Below, one piece after another: positions 2,772-50,534 of a stretch of 64,000 nt of DNA. This DNA comes from Escherichia phage vB_EcoM-LTH01, in the sequence record PP430345. One strand, given 5' to 3'. The position numbers and the translations under genes are program-made. Under the pieces are notes generated by a model that made no database searches, was not told the origin of the DNA, and saw only the letters and a program-made list of their open reading frames with translations. Each line of letters begins with the position of its first letter. Positions within the stretch are counted from its first letter, which is position 1.

Positions 2772-4139
2772 ATGAGCGTAACTAAGATTATCGAACAACT
2801 GGCAGCAACCGGATCAACAAAAGAAAAAGAAGCGATCTTACGTAGTCATGCGGATAACGATGGCCTGCGTGAAGTATTTCGGGTAGCATATAGCAAAGAG
2901 TTAAACTTCTTTGTTCGCAGTTTTAAGGTTGATCCTGCAACTTTCCACCAAGGAAGCCGTAATCTGCAAGAGAGTATTGATCTTATCGTCAACGATGTTG
3001 CAAGCCGTATGTACACTGGGCATGAAGCTCGTGATGTTCTCACGAATGCCGTTCAACTGTGTGAAGAACCCGAAACCCTGATAAAGATCATCAACCGCGA
3101 TCTTGAGTGTGGTATCCAGACAACTCTGACCAACAAGGTTTGGAAGGACCTGATTACAGAGCCTCCTTACCAGAGCTATACTCTTTTCAAAGAGGATCTC
3201 CTTCGTAATTTCAACTATGAGGGTGCTTTCTCCGACGAGAAGATGGACGGACTTTATGCAGACATTATGGTTTGGCCTGAGCAGGTCATTTATCGTTCAC
3301 GATCAGGGAAAGAGCTTAATTTCCGGTGTATTACTTCACTTGAGCAAAACCTGAAAGAAAAAGCCAATTCTGATGGTCCTTTTGTTATGCACGGGGAAGG
3401 TTTAGTTATTGACCTGTCATACCCGCACGGGGTTCAACCACGAGAGATCGGTAACGGATATCTTAACCAAGATCCTGAAAACATTGATCCTAATCTGGTA
3501 CGTTTGGTTGTTTGGGATGTTGTTTCTATGGACGAGTATATCGCACGTAAATCCAAGAAAAAATATAAAGACCGTCGTAAGCAGGTTGAAAATATTGTCA
3601 ACTATGTTGATGAGTCTTCTCATTTCCAGATGATCCGTGGTCGTCAGATAGGCAGTCTTAAAGAGGCTATTGACCACTTTATCGAAATGCGTTTGCAGAA
3701 GAAAGAGGGTACGGTTCTTAAAGAAGCGAATATGCCTTGGGGAGATAACAAGACTAAGAAAGGGATCAAACTTAAAAATGAGTTCGATGTTGATCTTGAG
3801 GTTGTGGCGACAACGCCTCACAAGAAGAAGCCTGGGCTTATTGGATCTCTGGTCTGCCGGACTCGTGATGGACTTCTTGAAGTTGGTGCTGGGTCTGGAC
3901 TTACTGATGCGCTTCGTAAAAAGCCGAGTGAGTATTTCATTGGGCAGATTATTACGATCAAGGCTAATGACATTACTGATGCGGAGAATAAAGATCTGAA
4001 ATCGCTGTTTTTGCCACGTTTAAATTATAAGTTTGTTGAACTTCGCTTTGATAAGAGCGTAGCCAACAGCCTGGAAGAAGTGATCGAAGCATCGAACTCT
4101 CTTCTGGATCTTCTTCGTAAAATTGCAGAGGAGGTTTAA
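2772..4139 (+). CDS. ATP-dependent DNA ligase (T4 gp30-like)
   Basis: N-terminus IEQLAATGSTKEKEAILR resembles T4 ligase; KMDG (KxDG adenylation lysine motif); RDLECG; NAGSGL-like GAGSGL; LFLPRL C-terminal motif. Confidence 0.9.
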   Translation: MSVTKIIEQLAATGSTKEKEAILRSHADNDGLREVFRVAYSKELNFFVRSFKVDPATFHQGSRNLQESIDLIVNDVASRMYTGHEARDVLTNAVQLCEEPETLIKIINRDLECGIQTTLTNKVWKDLITEPPYQSYTLFKEDLLRNFNYEGAFSDEKMDGLYADIMVWPEQVIYRSRSGKELNFRCITSLEQNLKEKANSDGPFVMHGEGLVIDLSYPHGVQPREIGNGYLNQDPENIDPNLVRLVVWDVVSMDEYIARKSKKKYKDRRKQVENIVNYVDESSHFQMIRGRQIGSLKEAIDHFIEMRLQKKEGTVLKEANMPWGDNKTKKGIKLKNEFDVDLEVVATTPHKKKPGLIGSLVCRTRDGLLEVGAGSGLTDALRKKPSEYFIGQIITIKANDITDAENKDLKSLFLPRLNYKFVELRFDKSVANSLEEVIEASNSLLDLLRKIAEEV

Positions 4140-4141
4140 TA

Positions 4142-4603
4142 GTGGAAGCTTTAATTATCGCTGTTGTGGGGATTACACTTTACCTTTCCGTAATTTTGGG
4201 CGTTCCCGTGTTGCTTACTCGTAAGCCAGCAGGTAAGATCTTGAAGTTGATTCGTGAAGGATCTTCTCGGTTTGAGGTACATTCTGGAGTTTTTGTTCCT
4301 GAGGGCCATGAAGATCCTTGTGAGGATAATGATGATCTTTGGTATGTTGATTATACAATTGTTGATACGGTCACAGGTAAGGTTACTTACATTGAAAAGG
4401 TTTGTGGTATTATCTCCGATAGCCTTTTCGTAAATGGCGATCTGTTCTGGATGAATGATTATGAAGGTACACGACTTTACCACACCTGTCGTCGAATCGT
4501 TAAGCGACGTAATAAGGCTTCAAAAAAGGACAAACGATCTAAGTTCGAGATCGAAAAGGATGAAGCACGTAAAGTTGCACTAGAAACTTATAAAGACTGT
4601 TGA
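4142..4603 (+). CDS. membrane protein (N-terminal TM helix)
   Basis: GTG start after GGAGG; N-terminal ALIIAVVGITLYLSVILGVPVLL. Confidence 0.5.
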   Translation: MEALIIAVVGITLYLSVILGVPVLLTRKPAGKILKLIREGSSRFEVHSGVFVPEGHEDPCEDNDDLWYVDYTIVDTVTGKVTYIEKVCGIISDSLFVNGDLFWMNDYEGTRLYHTCRRIVKRRNKASKKDKRSKFEIEKDEARKVALETYKDC

Positions 4604-4656
4604 CAATGATAAGGGGCCATTATACATGACCCCAAGTTAAACGAAAGGAGATTAAA

Positions 4657-5394
4657 TTGAAATACAATGAATTGAGTACTGATCAAAAAACCTTTATTTC
4701 CGAGATGATTGATGTTAAGGGCAATAGCTTCTTTCGGGAAGCAGCAGAGCGAGTAAAAAATTGGAATTTTGTTGCTCGTGGTTTTCATGACTTCTCTGAA
4801 GATGTTTCAAAATTCCAAAAAACTCTTGTTATGGAAGAGTACAATGAACTTTATGATCTTGGTTTAACTAAAAAGAATCGTAAGGAAATCATAGATGCAC
4901 TTTGCGACTTGTTTGTAGTTGGATCATATTACAACTTCTTGAAAGGTGGTTCTGAAAACATCTGTCCTGCTGACAATGTTGGTACGTATAATCTGACTTC
5001 GCTTTATCGAACTCTTGATCAATTTATCGAGAGTGACAATACAAACGGGATCGTTATGGCGGTTGTTGCAATCATGCAGAACTCCAACTTTAATGCTCAT
5101 CGTGCTTTAAATGAGGTTTTGGATTCAAATGATTCCAAGATCCCAACCGTGAAAGAATTTACAGAAGGTTTCTACAAGACGTATTACTTTTTTGCAGAAG
5201 CTGATTTTGATCTTGATGCCATGATGCGTTTGGAAGCAGAACAGATTGAACTGCGTAACCGTAACCGTTATCATGGTGTGAAGGGAAGTATCGTAAAAGG
5301 TGGTGATGGTATGGATCGAGTAGTATTTAAAGATAAGAACGGCAAGATCATGAAGCCGATCACTTATTTTGAAGCAAACCTAGAGGGAATGTAA
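4657..5394 (+). CDS. hypothetical protein, possible MazG-like NTP pyrophosphohydrolase fold
   Basis: TTG start 9 nt after AAGGAG; EEYNELYDLG...EIIDALCDLFVVG resembles the MazG EExxE...DAxxD pattern (tentative). Confidence 0.5.
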   Translation: MKYNELSTDQKTFISEMIDVKGNSFFREAAERVKNWNFVARGFHDFSEDVSKFQKTLVMEEYNELYDLGLTKKNRKEIIDALCDLFVVGSYYNFLKGGSENICPADNVGTYNLTSLYRTLDQFIESDNTNGIVMAVVAIMQNSNFNAHRALNEVLDSNDSKIPTVKEFTEGFYKTYYFFAEADFDLDAMMRLEAEQIELRNRNRYHGVKGSIVKGGDGMDRVVFKDKNGKIMKPITYFEANLEGM

Positions 5395-5397
5395 TTA

Positions 5398-5574
5398 ATG
5401 CCGTTGTATTCTTACAAATGTGAAAAATGTGGTGAAGTTTTCGATCAAAATAGAAAGATCGCAGAACGTGAAAATGCTCCTTGCAAGTGTGGAGAGATTG
5501 CAGTAAAATGTTTGTCTGCTCCACGAGGAATTAAAAACGGTTATTGTGACCAGGGTAAAATGTTTGTACGATAG
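5398..5574 (+). CDS. zinc-ribbon protein (FmdB-like CxxC...CxC)
   Basis: 58-aa ORF MPLYSYKCEKCGEVFD...CKCGE; below track cutoff. Confidence 0.45.
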   Translation: MPLYSYKCEKCGEVFDQNRKIAERENAPCKCGEIAVKCLSAPRGIKNGYCDQGKMFVR

Positions 5575-15052: not shown

Positions 15053-15658
15053 ATGAAAAAAGCGATCATTGTGGATGTTGACTTAACTATCGTTGATTCT
15101 GGATGGCCTTGGTTGCACTGGATGGAAAGCATCTATAATATGGAGGCTGATTCTGACCTTATGGAAAAGGACATTAGCGAGAATGGGTATTTTGATTACA
15201 ATCTTTCTCGGTACTTTCCTGATCGCTGTAAGAAGGCTATCCCTCCATATGATTATTGGGAAGACCCTTTCTTGTATGATAAGATGTTCCCTATTGCGGG
15301 AGCAGTAGAGGCAATCAATAAGTTACATGCCGCAGGATTCCCTATTCGGTTTGTGTCTTATTGCAAGAAAGGTCATTTTAGTAGTAAAGTTCGTTTCTTG
15401 AAGCGACACTTCCCTAACCTGGATCTTGAAAATGGAACAGACGGGTGTGGTTTTTATGCTACAAAGTACAAGGCTGGAGTTTCGGGTGATTACATCATTG
15501 ATGATCGTAATAAATTTTTGAATCAATTTAGTGACAAGGTAGTAAAAATCAAGTATGATACACCCTTCAGTCAAGACGAAGAAGAGATCGGGTGTTACGA
15601 CTTGGTAACTAGCGATTGGGCATCAATTGCTGAATTTATTTTGGAGAGAGAATCTTGA
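15053..15658 (+). CDS. HAD-superfamily 5'(3')-deoxyribonucleotidase-like hydrolase
   Basis: IIVDVDLTIVD (DxDxT) motif I; C-terminal DD motif. Confidence 0.55.
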   Translation: MKKAIIVDVDLTIVDSGWPWLHWMESIYNMEADSDLMEKDISENGYFDYNLSRYFPDRCKKAIPPYDYWEDPFLYDKMFPIAGAVEAINKLHAAGFPIRFVSYCKKGHFSSKVRFLKRHFPNLDLENGTDGCGFYATKYKAGVSGDYIIDDRNKFLNQFSDKVVKIKYDTPFSQDEEEIGCYDLVTSDWASIAEFILERES

Positions 15659-15840
15659 GATGTGGTAAAGGAAGATGGGTAGTTAGGGAAGGTGATTATG
15701 TAGAGATCCTTTCTAAAGAAAAGGGAAGCCTTTTGGCTTCCTTCAAAGTAAAAAGCGACATGTGCAAAGAAATGTTTGACATGTATCTTCACATTATGTA
15801 CGATATTAGCGTTGATTACAAAATCAGGAAAATAAAATGA
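15655..15840 (+). CDS. hypothetical protein
   Basis: 61-aa ORF with overlapping start. Confidence 0.4.
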   Translation: MRCGKGRWVVREGDYVEILSKEKGSLLASFKVKSDMCKEMFDMYLHIMYDISVDYKIRKIK

Positions 15841-41671: not shown

Positions 41672-41878
41672 ATGATTTCTTCAGAGCAGGTTCAATTTTG
41701 TGAATTAAAACAGGATTTCGGGCAGCACAAGAAAGGTGATCGATTTGAGTTTCACTTTGGTAACACTTATCGTGACCCACGTAGAACTTTCGTTGTTGAT
41801 ACCCACTCTGGAGCAATGGTGTTTTGGGAAGAGGACTTTATGAAATTGTTTTTCACGGAGGGTATCGTTGAAATTTGA
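41672..41878 (+). CDS. hypothetical protein
   Basis: 68-aa ORF, SD AAGGGG. Confidence 0.5.
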   Translation: MISSEQVQFCELKQDFGQHKKGDRFEFHFGNTYRDPRRTFVVDTHSGAMVFWEEDFMKLFFTEGIVEI

Positions 41879-41939
41879 AAATAATGAAGAAAAACAAGGG
41901 TATGTGTCTACAGTACCTGAAAGTAAGTCTCGCTCCTTT

Positions 41940-41969
41940 TTGGACTTTGTAAGGAAAAACAGGTATAAT
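41940..41969 (+). promoter_or_regulatory. promoter upstream of RCC1-like gene cluster
   Basis: TTGGAC - 18 nt - TATAAT, followed by GGAACC...GGTTC hairpin and SD. Confidence 0.5.
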
Positions 41970-42044
41970 AGTAAAGTAGATAATGAAACAAAGGAACCTC
42001 TTTATGGGGTTCTTTGTGGTATTCCAAAACAACAGGAGAATTAA

Positions 42045-43244
42045 ATGTTAGAAATGTTGAACTTAGGTGCTGTGGCCTCTCTACCGCCGATTGATGGTGA
42101 AATTTCACCTGAATTTATCCAAGCGCAGCAATCGATAGTTATGTATCTTCACAGGCCAACTGGCAATCTTTACGGGTATGGTAATGCACCTGTATACCGA
42201 TTCGGAGACGGTATCCCAACAGAAGTGCCGAGCTTTAAACTTATCTATTCAAACTGTAAATATTTCTGGTTGGGTCAGGCTAGTACACTTGTTGCAACAA
42301 ACGATGATAAATTCTATTATGCTGGGGTCAGAAACGCATTTCCACCACTGGGGACAGGTGGTGGTAACGTTGCTTACTTTACTGAAGTTACAGTACATTT
42401 TAACAATATTGGTGTGACACCTGATGATATAAAAACTCTGGCGCTCGGTAGCGGATCTTGTAGGCTTCTGACAAAAGATGGTCGTGTTTTCTGCTGTGGT
42501 CTTAACTCTAATGGTGAGTGTGGGAACGGTACAAGAAATATGATTGCAAACTTTGTCCAGATCACCAATATGGGACCTATATCTCAATTGGCTACAAGGG
42601 CTTTCGGTACTCATTTCTTAACTGAAGATGGCAGGGAATTCTTTGCAGGGTACGATGCTTACGGGGAAAGTGGCCTAGGTGCTCTTAACAGCCACTTACA
42701 AACTCCAACATTGGTTACTTCGGGTGTTAAAAACATAATTGTTGCTACGGTATGTACTTGGAGAATAATGCAAAATGGAGACGTGTATTGGAGCGGTTTG
42801 AATACTCAAGGTTCTGCGGGAACAGGTTCATTTAACAACGCAGGTACGGTCCTAAGACCTATAAAAAACGATGCCTTGAGTGGAAACTTACCGGAGGGTG
42901 ATTTATTATATCCATCAGGCATCCAAACAGGTGATGCAACGGGTGCTCCGATCATTTGTTTCGGGAGAAACACTATCAAAAACGGTGGTGAAAACGGATC
43001 AGGTCAAGTGGGTGATGGTGTAAGTTATACATCGGTATATAACTATGTGGACATGTACAAACCTGCAACCTTCGGAGATAAAAAGGTTATTGGGGTGGCT
43101 AAAGATTATGTACGATCATTTATCTTAACTGAAGATTATCAATTGTTTGCCGCAGGTGGTAGAACAGCAAGTGGATGGACACTCCCTGATGGAGGGACCA
43201 GTGTTACACCCATGCGCCTCATGGCTAGTATGCCTTGGTACTAA
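42045..43244 (+). CDS. RCC1-like Gly-rich repeat protein, paralog 1 of 4
   Basis: starts MLEMLNLG; repeated G-x-N-x-x-G-x-x-G-x-G units such as CCGLNSNGECGNGT and WSGLNTQGSAGTGS. Confidence 0.7.
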   Translation: MLEMLNLGAVASLPPIDGEISPEFIQAQQSIVMYLHRPTGNLYGYGNAPVYRFGDGIPTEVPSFKLIYSNCKYFWLGQASTLVATNDDKFYYAGVRNAFPPLGTGGGNVAYFTEVTVHFNNIGVTPDDIKTLALGSGSCRLLTKDGRVFCCGLNSNGECGNGTRNMIANFVQITNMGPISQLATRAFGTHFLTEDGREFFAGYDAYGESGLGALNSHLQTPTLVTSGVKNIIVATVCTWRIMQNGDVYWSGLNTQGSAGTGSFNNAGTVLRPIKNDALSGNLPEGDLLYPSGIQTGDATGAPIICFGRNTIKNGGENGSGQVGDGVSYTSVYNYVDMYKPATFGDKKVIGVAKDYVRSFILTEDYQLFAAGGRTASGWTLPDGGTSVTPMRLMASMPWY

Positions 43245-43257
43245 TAAGGAGAATAGA

Positions 43258-44391
43258 ATGTTAGAGATGTTAAATTTATCTGGCGCGGCAGGGAAGGTCC
43301 CATTTAAGTTGAAAAAGTTTGATATTACAGCAAGCGAAAGTATTCACTTGCTTAGTGAAGCTGGCAATCTGTACTCAATATCACCTACAAATGTAAACTT
43401 ATCGGGAACGGGTGTTACCACAACGCAGTGGACGTTAGTCTCTTCGGGTGTAGATGACTTCTGGGCTGGGCAAGCTTCGCTCTTGTTCAAAACAAAAGGG
43501 GGATCGTGGTTTATTACAGGGTATAACTTCTTCGTACCTAGAGTAGAGAATACGCCCGTTGACGTAACGGCTAAGGTAATGGCAATCAATAAGCCGATAA
43601 GAAAAATAGAAATGGGTGCTAATGCGATCGCTTTCCTTTATACAGATAATACTCTGGCAGTTGCGGGATCAGGCCCCCATTTAGGCTTAGGTTCCAATAC
43701 TTCAGTCCCGAATTTAACTTATGTTGAACCACCAAATACTTCGTTGGGTATCAAAGATGTTGCGATATTGGATACTTCAGTTACTACCTGGATTATAAGC
43801 GGGGGTGATGTATACGGATGTGGAAACGGGGCTTACTCTAAGTTTTCTTCTTCCAACGGGACAGGCCAAAGGACCTCTTTTGTTAGGATACCAAACCCAA
43901 TAAACTCAGCACCACTTGCATTAAAGACTGGATATGAGTGCGTGTATATTTCAGGCTCACGCACAGACGGGGATGAATTGATACTCGGCTTAGGTAGCAA
44001 CGCATATGGGTCATTAGGTGCAGCATCTACTGTTGCAACTGTAACTGACATATCTGTAGTCACAAGCAGTGTTTATTCACCCGCTTACGGGTTTTACCCT
44101 CTCGCCCAAGGTCTTGTGAGGAGAATAAATAACAATATCGGTATTACGGGGAGGACTGCGGGGACAGGCTGGGGATTGGGAACTCAGACGTATTACGGTA
44201 TTACTAGAATAACCACTACAGCAAGTCCGTTATGGGGTCAAATATTTCAAAGGGGTGAGTATACAAACACTTACGTTCTGGCAGAAGATGGTATTTTGTA
44301 TGGGTCGGGTGGGGCTTCAACAGGTAAATTACCTGGTTACACAACAGATCAGTCAACCTATGTGCCACTGGACCTTACCGGACTTGAATAA
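43258..44391 (+). CDS. RCC1-like Gly-rich repeat protein, paralog 2 of 4
   Basis: AAGGAGAATAGA SD then MLEMLNLSG; track start 43147 overlaps paralog 1. Confidence 0.7.
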   Translation: MLEMLNLSGAAGKVPFKLKKFDITASESIHLLSEAGNLYSISPTNVNLSGTGVTTTQWTLVSSGVDDFWAGQASLLFKTKGGSWFITGYNFFVPRVENTPVDVTAKVMAINKPIRKIEMGANAIAFLYTDNTLAVAGSGPHLGLGSNTSVPNLTYVEPPNTSLGIKDVAILDTSVTTWIISGGDVYGCGNGAYSKFSSSNGTGQRTSFVRIPNPINSAPLALKTGYECVYISGSRTDGDELILGLGSNAYGSLGAASTVATVTDISVVTSSVYSPAYGFYPLAQGLVRRINNNIGITGRTAGTGWGLGTQTYYGITRITTTASPLWGQIFQRGEYTNTYVLAEDGILYGSGGASTGKLPGYTTDQSTYVPLDLTGLE

Positions 44392-44400
44392 GGAAAAATT

Positions 44401-45540
44401 ATGTTAGAGATGATGAACTTAGGTTCTGTCGAATTGCCAGAAGTGGAAGGTAACGTTAAGAAATTCGCCGCCGGAGGTACGGGGATTGTTGTACTTATGA
44501 AATCCGGCAACGCCTACGGTATCGGAGATCAATACTTCAGCGGTACAGGGGGGAATGTTACAACATGGAGGCTTCTGGCAAGAAACGTTGCAGATATATG
44601 GGCTGCAACTGGCTCTGTGCTTATGAGGACAACCGCAGATAGATGGTTGTTTATGGGGTTTAACCAATATTTTAATACTGGTTTTGGAACTACGATAACC
44701 ACCCCCAGAGATATAACTACAGATATGCCTATACCCGAAGGATTTGAGATCAAGCAGTTGGTACTCGGGTATCGTAACTTGGCTGTTGTCTTTACCAATG
44801 GGCGGTATGCAATGTGCGGGACTAATAACGCAGGAGGTCTGGGGACAGGGGACACTTTTGCAGTAAGAACCTTAACCTTAAGAACTGACTTCACAAACGT
44901 TGAAAAAATAGATCTTGATTGGGCAACCTACGACACATCTTATCTTCTTACCCAAGCTGGTGAAGTTTATGTATCAGGTGTTTCAAATAATGGACAAAAC
45001 GGGACAACTTCAAACACTACAACTTGGTTTAGGCAAAGCCCAATTAGTGGTGGTACGGTAGTTGACATAATCGCGACAACGCTTGGGTTTTTTAGGGTTG
45101 TACTTTTAAATGGTAATTACTACGTCTACGCACAAGGGCGAAGTTCGTCAGGGAGTCTTGGGGTAAATAACTCAGGTAACATAAACGTTCTTTCACCCTC
45201 ATTGGTATTTTCTAATGTACCTTCAAGACCTCCTTTGTACATTGGTCACCTTAGCGCCCGTATTCTCCACCCCGAAGAAAGGGTATACTATACAGGGGCG
45301 GCTACGGGTAGTTTACAAGGAGCAGGTGCACAATTTCAGTCGTCGTATTCAGTATTTACACGGCTTGCAGAGACTGTACCGTATGGTGGAGAATATTCAT
45401 CCCTAAAAGGTGGCTATGTTGCACACTACTATGTAGATAAAGGAAACCTATATGGTGTCGGTAATAGCAGTGCAGGATTGCTCCCAGGTTACATAGGTAC
45501 ACAACTCTTCGAATTTACACCGTTGGAATTGCCGGAGTAA
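44401..45540 (+). CDS. RCC1-like Gly-rich repeat protein, paralog 3 of 4
   Basis: MLEMMNLG start; CGTNNAGGLGTGDT; C-terminal LLPGY...LELPE. Confidence 0.7.
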   Translation: MLEMMNLGSVELPEVEGNVKKFAAGGTGIVVLMKSGNAYGIGDQYFSGTGGNVTTWRLLARNVADIWAATGSVLMRTTADRWLFMGFNQYFNTGFGTTITTPRDITTDMPIPEGFEIKQLVLGYRNLAVVFTNGRYAMCGTNNAGGLGTGDTFAVRTLTLRTDFTNVEKIDLDWATYDTSYLLTQAGEVYVSGVSNNGQNGTTSNTTTWFRQSPISGGTVVDIIATTLGFFRVVLLNGNYYVYAQGRSSSGSLGVNNSGNINVLSPSLVFSNVPSRPPLYIGHLSARILHPEERVYYTGAATGSLQGAGAQFQSSYSVFTRLAETVPYGGEYSSLKGGYVAHYYVDKGNLYGVGNSSAGLLPGYIGTQLFEFTPLELPE

Positions 45541-45562
45541 AAAACTTCAAAAGGGGAATTAA

Positions 45563-46714
45563 ATGTTAGAAATGATGAACTTAGGCACTGTTAAACTTCC
45601 TGCGGGAGGAGGCAGGGTCAAGAAGTTTGCAGCGGGGCAACAAGGCATCGTTGTACTTATGGAGTCTGGGAAACTCTATGGTCGCGGAAGTCAGTATTTT
45701 AGTGGTACAGGGTCTACTGTAAACACTTGGAAACTGCTAGGAACAGATATCGCAGACGTATGGACGGGTCCCGTATCAACTCTTGCAAGGACAACAGACG
45801 ACAGATGGTTGTTTATGGGATTGAACCAATATTTTAACACTGGTTTTGGGACAACATGGTCCGCGCTGACGGATGTTACAGTGGATATGCCTATCCCTGT
45901 TGGCCTTACGGTTAAGCAGGTAGTGATGGGATACATAAACGTTGCAGTAGTCTTTGCAAATGGACAATATGCCATGTGTGGGACAAATGTCTCCGGTGGA
46001 TTGGGTGTTGGTAACACATCACCTGTGAGAACCTTAACATTAAGGACCGATTTTACGAACGTGGAGAAGATAGACCTCGATTGGGGGACATATGATACCT
46101 CCTATCTTCTTACCCAAGCTGGTGATGTTTATGTGGCCGGACAATCTTCTTATGGTCAAAACGGAACACAGTCTAGCTCCACAACTTGGTTCAGGCAAAG
46201 TTCAGTTAGCGGCGGGACAGTGGTAGATATAGTTGCAACAACCTTAGGGTTCTTCAGGATCGTTCTTTCATCAGGGAGTTACCGAATATATGCGCAAGGG
46301 AGGGACATAAACAATAGTCTTGGAACTAACACCACAAGCAACACACCTCGACTGGCCCCTGTATTAGTTCTTTCGGGAATAGCAAGTGCAGTAAGACCAA
46401 GGGTATATATCAGTCACTATGCTGCCCGAGTTATAGATAGCGATGGAGTAGTATACTTTACAGGACAAGGGACGGGAGATCTACAGGGTGTTGGGACCAC
46501 ACCTCAACCAACGTATCGTGTTTTTTCACAGCTTGACCCAATAGTTCCGTCCGTAGGTGATTATTTTTCCACAAGATCTCAGTACCTGACTAACTATTAT
46601 TTGGAAGATGGTGTTCTGTATGGTGTTGGTCAGGGTGCTCAAGCAACACAGTTACTACCTGGTTATGGAACGACACAGGTTCTGACTTTCTCTGTTCTGG
46701 AATTACCGGAATAA
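45563..46714 (+). CDS. RCC1-like Gly-rich repeat protein, paralog 4 of 4
   Basis: MLEMMNLG start; CGTNVSGGLGVGNT; C-terminal LLPGY...LELPE; followed by terminator. Confidence 0.7.
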   Translation: MLEMMNLGTVKLPAGGGRVKKFAAGQQGIVVLMESGKLYGRGSQYFSGTGSTVNTWKLLGTDIADVWTGPVSTLARTTDDRWLFMGLNQYFNTGFGTTWSALTDVTVDMPIPVGLTVKQVVMGYINVAVVFANGQYAMCGTNVSGGLGVGNTSPVRTLTLRTDFTNVEKIDLDWGTYDTSYLLTQAGDVYVAGQSSYGQNGTQSSSTTWFRQSSVSGGTVVDIVATTLGFFRIVLSSGSYRIYAQGRDINNSLGTNTTSNTPRLAPVLVLSGIASAVRPRVYISHYAARVIDSDGVVYFTGQGTGDLQGVGTTPQPTYRVFSQLDPIVPSVGDYFSTRSQYLTNYYLEDGVLYGVGQGAQATQLLPGYGTTQVLTFSVLELPE

Positions 46715-46730
46715 CAAATTAATAAACACA

Positions 46731-46754
46731 AACCGCCTTTGGGCGGTTTTTTAT
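46731..46754 (+). terminator. intrinsic terminator
   Basis: AACCGCCTTTGGGCGGTT + T6. Confidence 0.8.
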
Positions 46755-49377: not shown

Positions 49378-49404
49378 AGAGCACCCCAAAAGTGGGTGCT
49401 TTTT
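49378..49404 (+). terminator. intrinsic terminator closing the + strand block
   Basis: GAGCACCCCAAAAGTGGGTGCT + TTTTT. Confidence 0.75.
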
Positions 49405-49429
49405 GCATCTGGATTGCAACCAAACTCAT

Positions 49430-50400
49430 CTGCTCATCCCAAAATGTTGTACACCTCTCCAAAATGTTGTGCCCACCAAACTATATAGTCCTTCCAAACT
49501 GTTGTACTCCAGCTACAATAATGCCCAAATATCGTACAACGATTCCCACAAATATCGATTCATCCCAAAATTAGGTAGTTTGCCTAAAGAGTAACCACTA
49601 CTTGGCCTACTGAGGCGCATCTTTTGCCACAGAGTTACCTCCCTTCCCTATACATCCATCCCTCATAGTTTAGAATTTCCAGTATATGTCTACTCTGAGT
49701 GGACCTCCATCATGAATTTTAAACGACAACTTTTTAGTTTTTATACCCTCCCGCCAAAATTTTGAGTCACCTCTTATGGGGTATGCCGCCTGTGAATATC
49801 CCACAAAATATCTCACAGGTCATAAAATATACCTCCCCGCCAAATTTTATGATGGATACTCCACGGGGGTGGGTCCATTATTTATCCTGCCCAAATATAT
49901 CTAAAGGGGGTAGCCTAAAGAGGCTCGCCAGTAGTGTCCCTTGACCTTGTTCCTCGTCAGCAAGAAAGAAGAGGATGTTTGCATCTTTTTTGTTGAGTGC
50001 GTTGGCACTGTTGCCAGGCACGGCGACCGTGGGGGAGGGGGAGGGGGTCGGATGTTTTCAAAATATCCAGGAAGTCAAGCATTATTTCTATTTATTTTCA
50101 ATCCACAATACATCTTTGATTCGACTTGTCAAGAAAAATGTTGTGCTCTTCCAACAATAAAGTTAAAGATTTCTATTGACTTCTGAATCTGATTTAGAAT
50201 ACTGATTTCAATCTGCATTTAACATAATACAACTTATACGCACTACAAGCGACTTGCAAGCGCCCTTCTTCCAGTCCAACAAGTGAGGCGACCTCAAGCC
50301 CCGCCAGGTCTGGCCCCTTCCAACTTGTGAGAAGAATAATCCCAACTTGTTACTATCCAACTGTGAATTATTCCAACTGTACAGAAGCGACTCCATCAGG
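49430..50400. repeat. iteron-like short direct repeats (CCAA-N-TGT family)
   Basis: CCAAAATGTTGT x2, CCAAACTGTTGT, CCAACAAGTG, CCAACTTGTG, CCAACTTGTT, CCAACTGTG, CCAACTGTAC in an ORF-free region. Confidence 0.5.
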
Positions 50401-50534
50401 GCCATCAATAGCCTGAGCGCCCCGCCATACTCTGGCAATAAAAGCAAGAAAAAATTTATTTTGGGAGAGAAGAGAGAAGAGAGTTTTACCTAGCAATATT
50501 CTATTGTCTGTTCATTCTGTGGGCAAGTAACAGC

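Follow-up and report, generated by a model that had tools for sequence, protein, structure and literature searches.

Four consecutive genes, here called P1 to P4, lie at positions 42045-46714 of a 64,000-nucleotide stretch of Escherichia phage vB_EcoM-LTH01 (sequence record PP430345; the whole stretch is referred to as the window) and encode paralogous proteins with RCC1-like repeats, whose orthologs in a close relative have been detected in purified virions. Each protein is predicted to be a seven-bladed propeller preceded by a short, flexible N-terminal peptide (the tag). The account that we tentatively favour, at slightly less than an even chance, is that P1-P4 are accessory binding heads docked by their tags on the tail or fibre apparatus. 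RCC1-like virion proteins in tandem have already been described, and the LTH01 set is a four-gene variant of that kind. New here are the tag, which is conserved, portable, predicted to be disordered and related to the N-termini of tail-fibre proteins, and a hypervariable gene slot. The four predicted products and their tags are as follows.

P1, 42045..43244, plus strand: RCC1-like propeller of 399 amino acid residues
P2, 43258..44391, plus strand: RCC1-like propeller of 377 residues, the most divergent of the paralogs
P3, 44401..45540, plus strand: RCC1-like propeller of 379 residues; A73/W70-type allele of the hypervariable slot
P4, 45563..46714, plus strand: RCC1-like propeller of 383 residues; UPEC06/L007-type allele of the hypervariable slot
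N-terminal tags, plus strand: P1 42045..42068; P2 43258-43281; P3 44401-44424; P4 45563-45586

LTH01 was placed in the Vequintavirinae, near Septuagintavirus. Its nearest published genomes (88-90% nucleotide identity) are those of Septuagintavirus A73, W70, A5-4 and A7_1 and of UPEC06, each of which carries three propeller genes, directly orthologous and at the corresponding place in the genome. The first-pass annotation of the window had pointed to virion proteomics as a check on its proposal, and the outcome was favourable: all three W70 orthologs (W70_237, W70_238 and W70_239) were found in purified W70 virions by electrospray ionization tandem mass spectrometry, with spectrum counts of 233, 196 and 141, respectively (PMC11370258). 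Scaled by protein size, these counts are more like those of the portal, tape measure and baseplate than those of the capsid, and they exceed those of several baseplate proteins. Similar proteins recur in the particles of large phages of enterobacteria, in which a single genome can encode as many as 13. In the jumbo coliphage phAPEC6, 11 genes are RCC1-like and at least six of their products are in virions; an inner-body or DNA-ordering role was suggested for them (PMC7247149). Virions of GAP32 contain gp001, and 121Q carries 13 copies, whereas the family is missing from the "hairy" phage CBB (PMC5259590). For this last reason a role as the hairy whiskers of jumbo phages was rejected. Among other W70 proteins, 728 spectra were assigned to W70_129 (L004 11517-13100), an abundant virion component with a side tail fibre annotation. 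Collagen triple-helix repeats are present in it (Pfam, E = 1.3e-47), and the protein is reported to be missing from A5-4 and A7_1 (PMC11370258).

We consider it very unlikely that the proteins are abundant late cytoplasmic products, such as fibre-assembly helpers or host GTPase regulators, that merely co-purify with particles. The non-structural location of the genes would fit such an origin, as would the fact that detection has been by shotgun mass spectrometry of gradient-purified particles only. However, three studies with no connection to one another each detected such proteins in a different, unrelated phage (W70, GAP32 or phAPEC6), and all three W70 paralogs were seen, with counts over those of several baseplate proteins.

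The counts also bear on the function that database entries imply through their names ("DNA condensation protein", "regulator of chromosome condensation") and that two phage papers suggest, namely that of a DNA-condensing or inner-body protein. The W70 authors used the name "regulator of chromosome condensation 1" and offered a role in DNA encapsulation as a guess (PMC11370258), and the phAPEC6 authors speculated along the same lines (PMC7247149). Apart from this speculation, what speaks for such a function is a name carried over from eukaryotic RCC1, and we regard it as highly improbable. P1-P4 are acidic (isoelectric point 5.4-5.8), with 23-26 lysine plus arginine residues against 25-31 aspartate plus glutamate residues and a slightly negative net charge, and so lack the basic character of a DNA- or chromatin-binding protein. 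The size-scaled spectrum counts of the W70 orthologs are portal- or baseplate-like, not those of a bulk DNA coat, and relatives of P1-P4 are encoded in tail-fibre loci (see below). Eukaryotic RCC1 works on chromatin by way of Ran and nucleosomes, neither of which is known from bacteria or phages; no Ran is known in E. coli or in the phage.

The RCC1-like nature of P1-P4 was captured by several kinds of searches. Pfam model PF25390 matches all four proteins (E = 7.6e-10 to 3.8e-26), yet below its curated cut-off, which is very high at 150 bits. RCC1 repeat models score over their curated cut-offs in P1 (PF00415 and PF13540) and P4 (PF13540). PHROG 4219 matches all four (E of about 6.5e-29 to 7.8e-52), and among PDB sequences P1 matches chains of UVR8, RPGR and RCC1 (E = 3e-13 to 5e-8). 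On these matches we judge the RCC1-like assignment to be well past chance. Amino acid identity is 62% between P3 and P4 and approximately 25% for every other pair. P3 and P4 share the C-terminal LLPGY...LELPE, which corresponds to the last loop and the closing strand, and an LP(G/D) motif is invariant across the family. Thus, the four consecutive genes of 377-399 codons, the propeller repeats and the common P3/P4 C-terminus of the first-pass annotation were all borne out.

AlphaFold2 models of P1 and P4 were built on a 35-sequence alignment and are predictions rather than experimental structures. The P4 model (predicted local distance difference test (pLDDT) 88.9, predicted template modelling score 0.88) has 28 strands, seven blades of four, and its ring is closed by strands 19-42 together with the C-terminal strand 373-378, which joins the first three strands; residues 1-15 are left as an extra appendage. 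P1 gives the same closed ring of 28 strands (pLDDT 81.3), with a loop insertion at residues 291-297 that is disordered and of low confidence. The seven-bladed propeller that had been anticipated was therefore modelled for both proteins. In a Foldseek search of the PDB the top match was UVR8 (E = 4.5e-24, template modelling score 0.76-0.80), followed by RPGR, HERC2 and RCC1. Taken together, P1-P4 are real paralogs and, by these models, seven-bladed RCC1-like propellers of about 40 kDa. The RCC1-like domains (RLDs) of UVR8, RPGR, HERC2 and RCC1 have the same fold and glycine-rich repeat signature, whereas sequence identity is 14-19% and P1-P4 have no Ran, chromatin or ultraviolet-B context; eukaryotic functions should not be transferred to them. 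All four proteins end 5-10 residues past the closing strand, with no C-terminal Ig-like or fibre extension.

Preceding the propeller is the tag. All four proteins had been said to start with MLEM(L/M)NLG, which holds for P1 (MLEMLNLG), P3 and P4 (both MLEMMNLG) but not for P2, which has serine at position 8 (MLEMLNLS). The first-pass annotation had noted this common start, but neither its predicted disorder outside the fold nor its kinship with the N-termini of tail-fibre proteins. In the 35-sequence family alignment MLEMMNLG ranks first in conservation among 375 eight-residue windows, and the family-wide pattern is M-[LIF]-E-[ML]-[MLI]-..-G. The tag region has pLDDT values below 50 (residues 1-15 of P4 and 1-21 of P1) and lies beyond the propeller closure; it is thus predicted to be disordered and outside the propeller fold. 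We rejected a "velcro strand" as the cause of N-terminal conservation, as P4 is already closed by 19-42 and 373-378 and the first 15 residues are of low confidence in both models. Constraint at the nucleotide level or gene conversion is also unlikely to account for it: from one paralog to another the tag uses different synonymous codons, and nucleotide identity between P3 and P4 is just 50-77%, with no identical tract.

The Rak2-like/Asteriusvirus arrays (GAP32 gp001; phAPEC6 with 11 copies; 121Q with 13; WPEC5) offer a close parallel, as they too comprise free-standing, tandem, virion-detected propellers of about 380 residues with an N-terminal tag on each paralog. They differ in having far more copies, in the tag itself (MLPFARMVKYGN versus MLEMMNLG) and in being just 25-32% identical to P1-P4. 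In jumbo phage WPEC5 all 11 tandem genes begin with MLPF(A/V)RM(V/F)(K/D)YGN. Inside this array (L003 3446-4183) lies a gene for a glycine-rich protein of 245 residues that matches PHROG 4474, has no Pfam match and is not RCC1-like; all that it has in common with the array is the 12-residue tag, 11 of whose 12 residues are identical. Because the tag is found on an unrelated body, we take it to be a portable module. No other credible tag-bearing open reading frame (ORF) was found in the window, and in the window plus 50 kb of W70 tags occur only on the paralogs and on W70_106.

P1 belongs to a jumbo-phage-like subfamily, with the C-terminus MPWY, and the jumbo group shares with it a C-terminal PW(DT)Y motif. 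A metagenomic protein, P0004, bridges both groups: it is 32% identical to P1, yet carries the jumbo-type tag MIPFARIVQYGN. One jumbo paralog (L003:969-2111) ends in LPWDTY, compared with MPWY in P1 and its orthologs. This pattern suggests that propeller bodies and tags have been exchanged between phage lineages.

The relatives whose context is most informative are encoded in tail-fibre loci. W70_106, a virion protein and the last gene product of the tail-fibre module, after the tail fibre W70_107, starts with MIPFPIINFGGG and is homologous to the family over its first 107 residues (hhalign E = 4.7e-5; PHROG 4219 E = 1.6e-8). Gene 40 of PVP-SE1, likewise the last gene of its fibre locus, encodes a 604-residue "tail protein" that starts with MYPIPCLF and combines an RCC1-like propeller with a Big_2 domain. 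It matches the family by structure (Foldseek E = 1.6e-20) and by profile (hhalign probability 97%, E = 1.1e-10, from residue 9), and it has homologs in 208 phage records. Among these homologs are Phapecoctavirus gp128 (RLD and Big_2), which starts with MFPIPIF, and a protein annotated in Vequintavirus as "lateral tail fiber protein with intimin domain", which starts with MLPIPLL. Related tags are thus found at the start of tail-fibre-locus propeller proteins in four phage groups. Ten N-termini from the family and from these proteins align collinearly. PVP-SE1 gene 40, gp128, the Vequintavirus lateral fibre protein and W70_106/CB7_37 share with P1-P4 the tag, an LP..G.(I/V)KK segment and the first blades; they are virion or tail proteins with an RCC1-like propeller that go on into Ig-like (Big_2) or long fibre regions, and their genes are in the fibre locus. 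P1-P4, in contrast, stop after the propeller, are encoded elsewhere and have glutamate rather than proline at tag position 3.

The cellular relatives found are large multi-domain proteins in which RCC1-like domains accompany Ig-like domains (Big_1, He_PIG or TIG) or recur in up to 32 matched stretches, an architecture that looks adhesin-like. Among 1.8 billion representatives, only approximately 15 full-length single-domain clusters were found in a superfamily of some 71,000 hits dominated by giant multi-repeat bacterial proteins.

Comparison of relatives revealed that the third position of the cluster evolves differently from the first two. In tblastn searches the family was found in 61 phage records, including Enterobacter, Cronobacter, Pectobacterium and Klebsiella phages (approximately 145-155 kb) and many jumbo phages. 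P1 and P2 are 93-99% and 96-97% identical, respectively, to their A73 and UPEC06 orthologs, with flanks, P1 and P2 together at 84-100%, and the 90%-identity clusters of P1 and P2 take in W70/A73 records, including W70_238. Slot 3 spreads over 61-84%. For P3 the identity is 84% with the A73 gene and 68% with that of UPEC06; P4 is 75% identical to the UPEC06 gene, 61% to the A73 gene and 87% to a gene from another relative (L007). Thus, whereas the Septuagintavirus and UPEC06 sets have three genes, LTH01 has four, its P3 corresponding to the A73/W70-type third gene and its P4 to the UPEC06-type one. Nucleotide identity between P3 and P4 is lowest in blades 5-7. Since these genes are so divergent and match alleles of different relatives, the fourth gene is not a recent duplication, contrary to the tandem quadruplication of the first-pass annotation. 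P1, P2 and P3/P4 are ancient paralogs, with P3 and P4 as two old alleles of one slot in tandem. Nor, contrary to another statement of that annotation, is a tandem array unusual for RCC1-like folds in phages: the jumbo phages phAPEC6, 121Q and WPEC5 hold 11-13 copies.

The expected variation of the paralog repertoire among related phages was found both in copy number (one, three or four) and in the hypervariable slot. According to look-ups of exact proteins, relatives have three copies with either allele (L007), three in a different order (L008) or one (L010); a scan of IMG/VR with P4 found no relatives. A metagenomic contig (L006) carries the same four genes, and its P4 has a local patch of 70% nucleotide identity amid 98-100% identity, which indicates mosaic exchange. 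Slot-3 evolution resembles that of host-interaction genes.

Two fragments related to the family were observed in other genomes. On the minus strand of A73 (15560-15760), the best-conserved segment of the slot-3 gene (codons 166-185, NVEKIDLDWSTYDTSYLLSQ) recurs as a 60-nucleotide copy, sitting between the arms of a 47-nucleotide direct duplication, 3.7 kb downstream and in opposite orientation. The undisturbed counterpart of the insertion site, with TCTTCTCTCCCAA microhomology, is at 50420-50473 of the window; the insertion looks like a scar of illegitimate recombination. PVP-SE1 gp179 (L005 3001-3303; 100 residues) matches only the first 88 residues of the family, at 42% identity, and is followed by 2.2 kb (3303-5545) with no annotated gene or further similarity. 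Gene and stretch together are possibly a decayed copy of a propeller gene.

We propose that each of P1-P4 would combine a short, flexible, lineage-specific N-terminal peptide (M-L-E-M-(L/M)-N-L) with a globular propeller that is built into the particle. The peptide would serve as an incorporation signal through which the propeller docks with a partner belonging to the tail or its fibres, in an arrangement akin to the N-termini of propeller-headed lateral tail-fibre proteins in Vequintavirinae and Phapecoctavirus. The docked propellers would act as accessory ligand-binding heads, lectin- or adhesin-like, with P1 and P2 as conserved fixtures and the P3/P4 slot as an exchangeable, fast-evolving element, represented in LTH01 by two alleles at once. 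What we infer is that the tag does the docking, that the site is on the tail and not the head, and that the propellers bind ligands and take part in receptor binding. We favour a tail or tail-fibre site because every relative whose genomic or structural context is known is a tail-fibre-locus protein. Binding, in turn, is suggested by the adhesin-like, Ig-like company of prokaryotic RCC1-like domains and by a slot 3 that is hypervariable, mosaic and present as two alleles.

The same architecture could be read in another way, with tag and propeller forming a virion-proximal attachment domain and the free-standing copies acting as adaptors, caps or spacers in the fibre network that bind no ligand. 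Indeed, in the long fibre proteins (604-1878 residues) the propeller is N-terminal, usually the particle-attached end, and the Ig-like or intimin domains are distal; moreover, P1 and P2 are as conserved as their housekeeping neighbours. However, the hypervariability, mosaicism and two alleles of slot 3 are hard to fit with a pure adaptor, and the arrays of 11-13 copies in jumbo phages are above plausible structural need, and so we consider this role unlikely.

Several observations weigh against tag-docked binding heads. The propeller genes sit amid small non-structural genes, with a distance of approximately 100 gene numbers between them and the structural module (W70_237-239 versus W70_106-137). 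P1-P4 are predicted to be globular and, unlike classical receptor-binding proteins, have no fibre or trimerisation domain. For Pectobacterium phage CB7, which shares the W70-type fibre genes (orthologs of W70_107, W70_112 and W70_106), no RCC1-like protein is mentioned in its virion proteome or in the paper describing it. Variation among slot-3 alleles is not concentrated on one face of the propeller: mean pairwise identity is 0.65 in odd loops, 0.64 in even loops and 0.73 in strands, which gives no signal of face-specific diversification, and we rejected that idea. Variation instead rises toward blades 5-7. Tags also differ within a W70-type phage (MLEM... on P1-P4 orthologs versus MIPFP... 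on W70_106), so the two kinds need not use one docking site.

Finally, TGNTAAAATA, a candidate late promoter of this phage group, is absent from the plus strand near the cluster and from the plus strand of the window as a whole. In the W70 structural module it occurs at four sites (3078, 13747, 20698 and 24196), all on the coding strand and in intergenic gaps, versus 0.66 expected; a count of four was reached in one of 100 shuffles. No late promoter of this kind common to the structural module and the propeller cluster was found.

The distance from the structural genes brings to mind the internal proteins of T4 (IPI-III and Alt), in which, as in P1-P4, a short conserved N-terminal peptide is carried by divergent, virion-incorporated proteins encoded away from the structural genes. 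By analogy with the T4 capsid-targeting sequence and the DarB packaging signal of phage P1, the tag of the LTH01 proteins might be a capsid-targeting signal. The propellers would then be packaged in the head, injected with the DNA and, like the RCC1-like propeller BLIP-II, act as tight protein-binding inhibitors, here of host defence or other host proteins, with the variable slot tracking the diversity of defences. We consider this account, the main rival of tag-docked binding heads, rather doubtful, although it has more in its favour than analogy. The tag is conserved, disordered and portable; the genes lie amid early-type small genes, as do those of T4 internal proteins; virion abundance is low to moderate; anti-defence loci, too, typically show divergent multi-copy arrays and a hypervariable slot; and an inner-body role was suspected by the phAPEC6 authors (PMC7247149).

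Other features fit packaging in the head less well. The W70 head protease is of the XkdF/S78_2 type (PF14550, Peptidase_S78_2), not of the T4 gp21/S77 type, and its capsid protein is of the lambda-E type (PF03864); a T4-like targeting-and-cleavage system is therefore not expected. The family alignment contains no conserved (L/I)xE cleavage site downstream of the tag. Membership in a T4-style system of capsid targeting and cleavage was rejected on these grounds, and P1-P4 also differ from T4 internal proteins in being acidic rather than basic and in having tail proteins as relatives. Within the LTH01 window only the paralogs bear the tag, and the nearest architectural relatives are tail-fibre-locus proteins with Ig-like domains. 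Passage through the tail tube would probably also require a propeller of about 40 kDa to unfold. If the propellers were nonetheless injected, they would represent a new class of packaged host-targeting proteins.

Tag-docked binding heads could be one instance of something broader. It is possible, although we hold it to be doubtful, that the tag (M-hydrophobic-P/E-hydrophobic...) is a general, portable plug-in signal that places interchangeable cargo onto a common virion docking site in at least four lineages of enterobacterial myophages (Septuagintavirus/Certrevirus-like, Seunavirus/Vequintavirus, Phapecoctavirus and Rak2-like jumbo phages). In that case the arrays of 1-13 tagged genes would amount to cartridges, with each gene an exchangeable module for interaction with the host. 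With the same reservation, the cargo might consist mostly of RCC1-like propellers and also include unrelated domains. Such cartridges would be a previously undescribed way to build a multivalent particle.

If the tag is an incorporation signal and the propellers are surface heads, some of the machinery that sets host range in therapeutic phages of the Vequintavirinae type would be explained and a widespread annotation corrected, given that these virion proteins are currently mislabelled "DNA condensation protein". The tag of 8-12 residues would also become a handle for the display of foreign domains on virions.

The four plus-strand ORFs are separated by 13, 9 and 22 nucleotides. Their products are identical to WWT49391-94 of Escherichia phage vB_EcoM-LTH01, each annotated as "hypothetical protein", and no further copies or fragments of the family were found in the window outside 42-46.7 kb. 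A mechanical ORF list extends P2 up to a TTG at 43147; we place its start at the ATG at 43258, which has an AAGGAG ribosome-binding site ahead and agrees with annotated orthologs. The elements flanking the four genes are as follows.

ORF of 58 residues, 41868..42044, plus strand: TTG start, abuts P1; annotated in UPEC06 and A73, 84-93% amino acid identity to relatives; contains the promoter-like element
Sigma-70-like element TGGACT-17-TATAAT, 41941..41969, plus strand: inside the 58-residue ORF; candidate operon promoter
Bidirectional intrinsic terminator, 46730..46749, both strands: AAACCGCC-TTTG-GGCGGTTT plus T-run; closes the four-gene unit

The cluster had been credited with its own promoter and terminator. 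The terminator stands: it starts 15 nucleotides past the P4 stop and has a strong stem of 8 bp, five of them G-C pairs, and a T-run. The promoter is a weak claim, since promoter-like matches around the cluster are not enriched (16 versus 14.2 in shuffles) and the element lies within an ORF. Nevertheless, its -10 part TATAATAGTA is retained as TAAAATAGTA (TA(T/A)AATAGTA) ahead of the first propeller gene even in a distant relative without the remainder of this sequence, and it is plausible that TGGACT-17-TATAAT serves as the operon promoter.

The neighbours of P1-P4 are small non-structural genes. At approximately 49400-50500 of the window gene orientation flips from plus to minus, and cumulative GC skew reaches its maximum near 50 kb. 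This switch matches the wrap-round of gene numbering in relatives (A73_264 to A73_1), and the propeller operon lies approximately 3 kb before the convergence.

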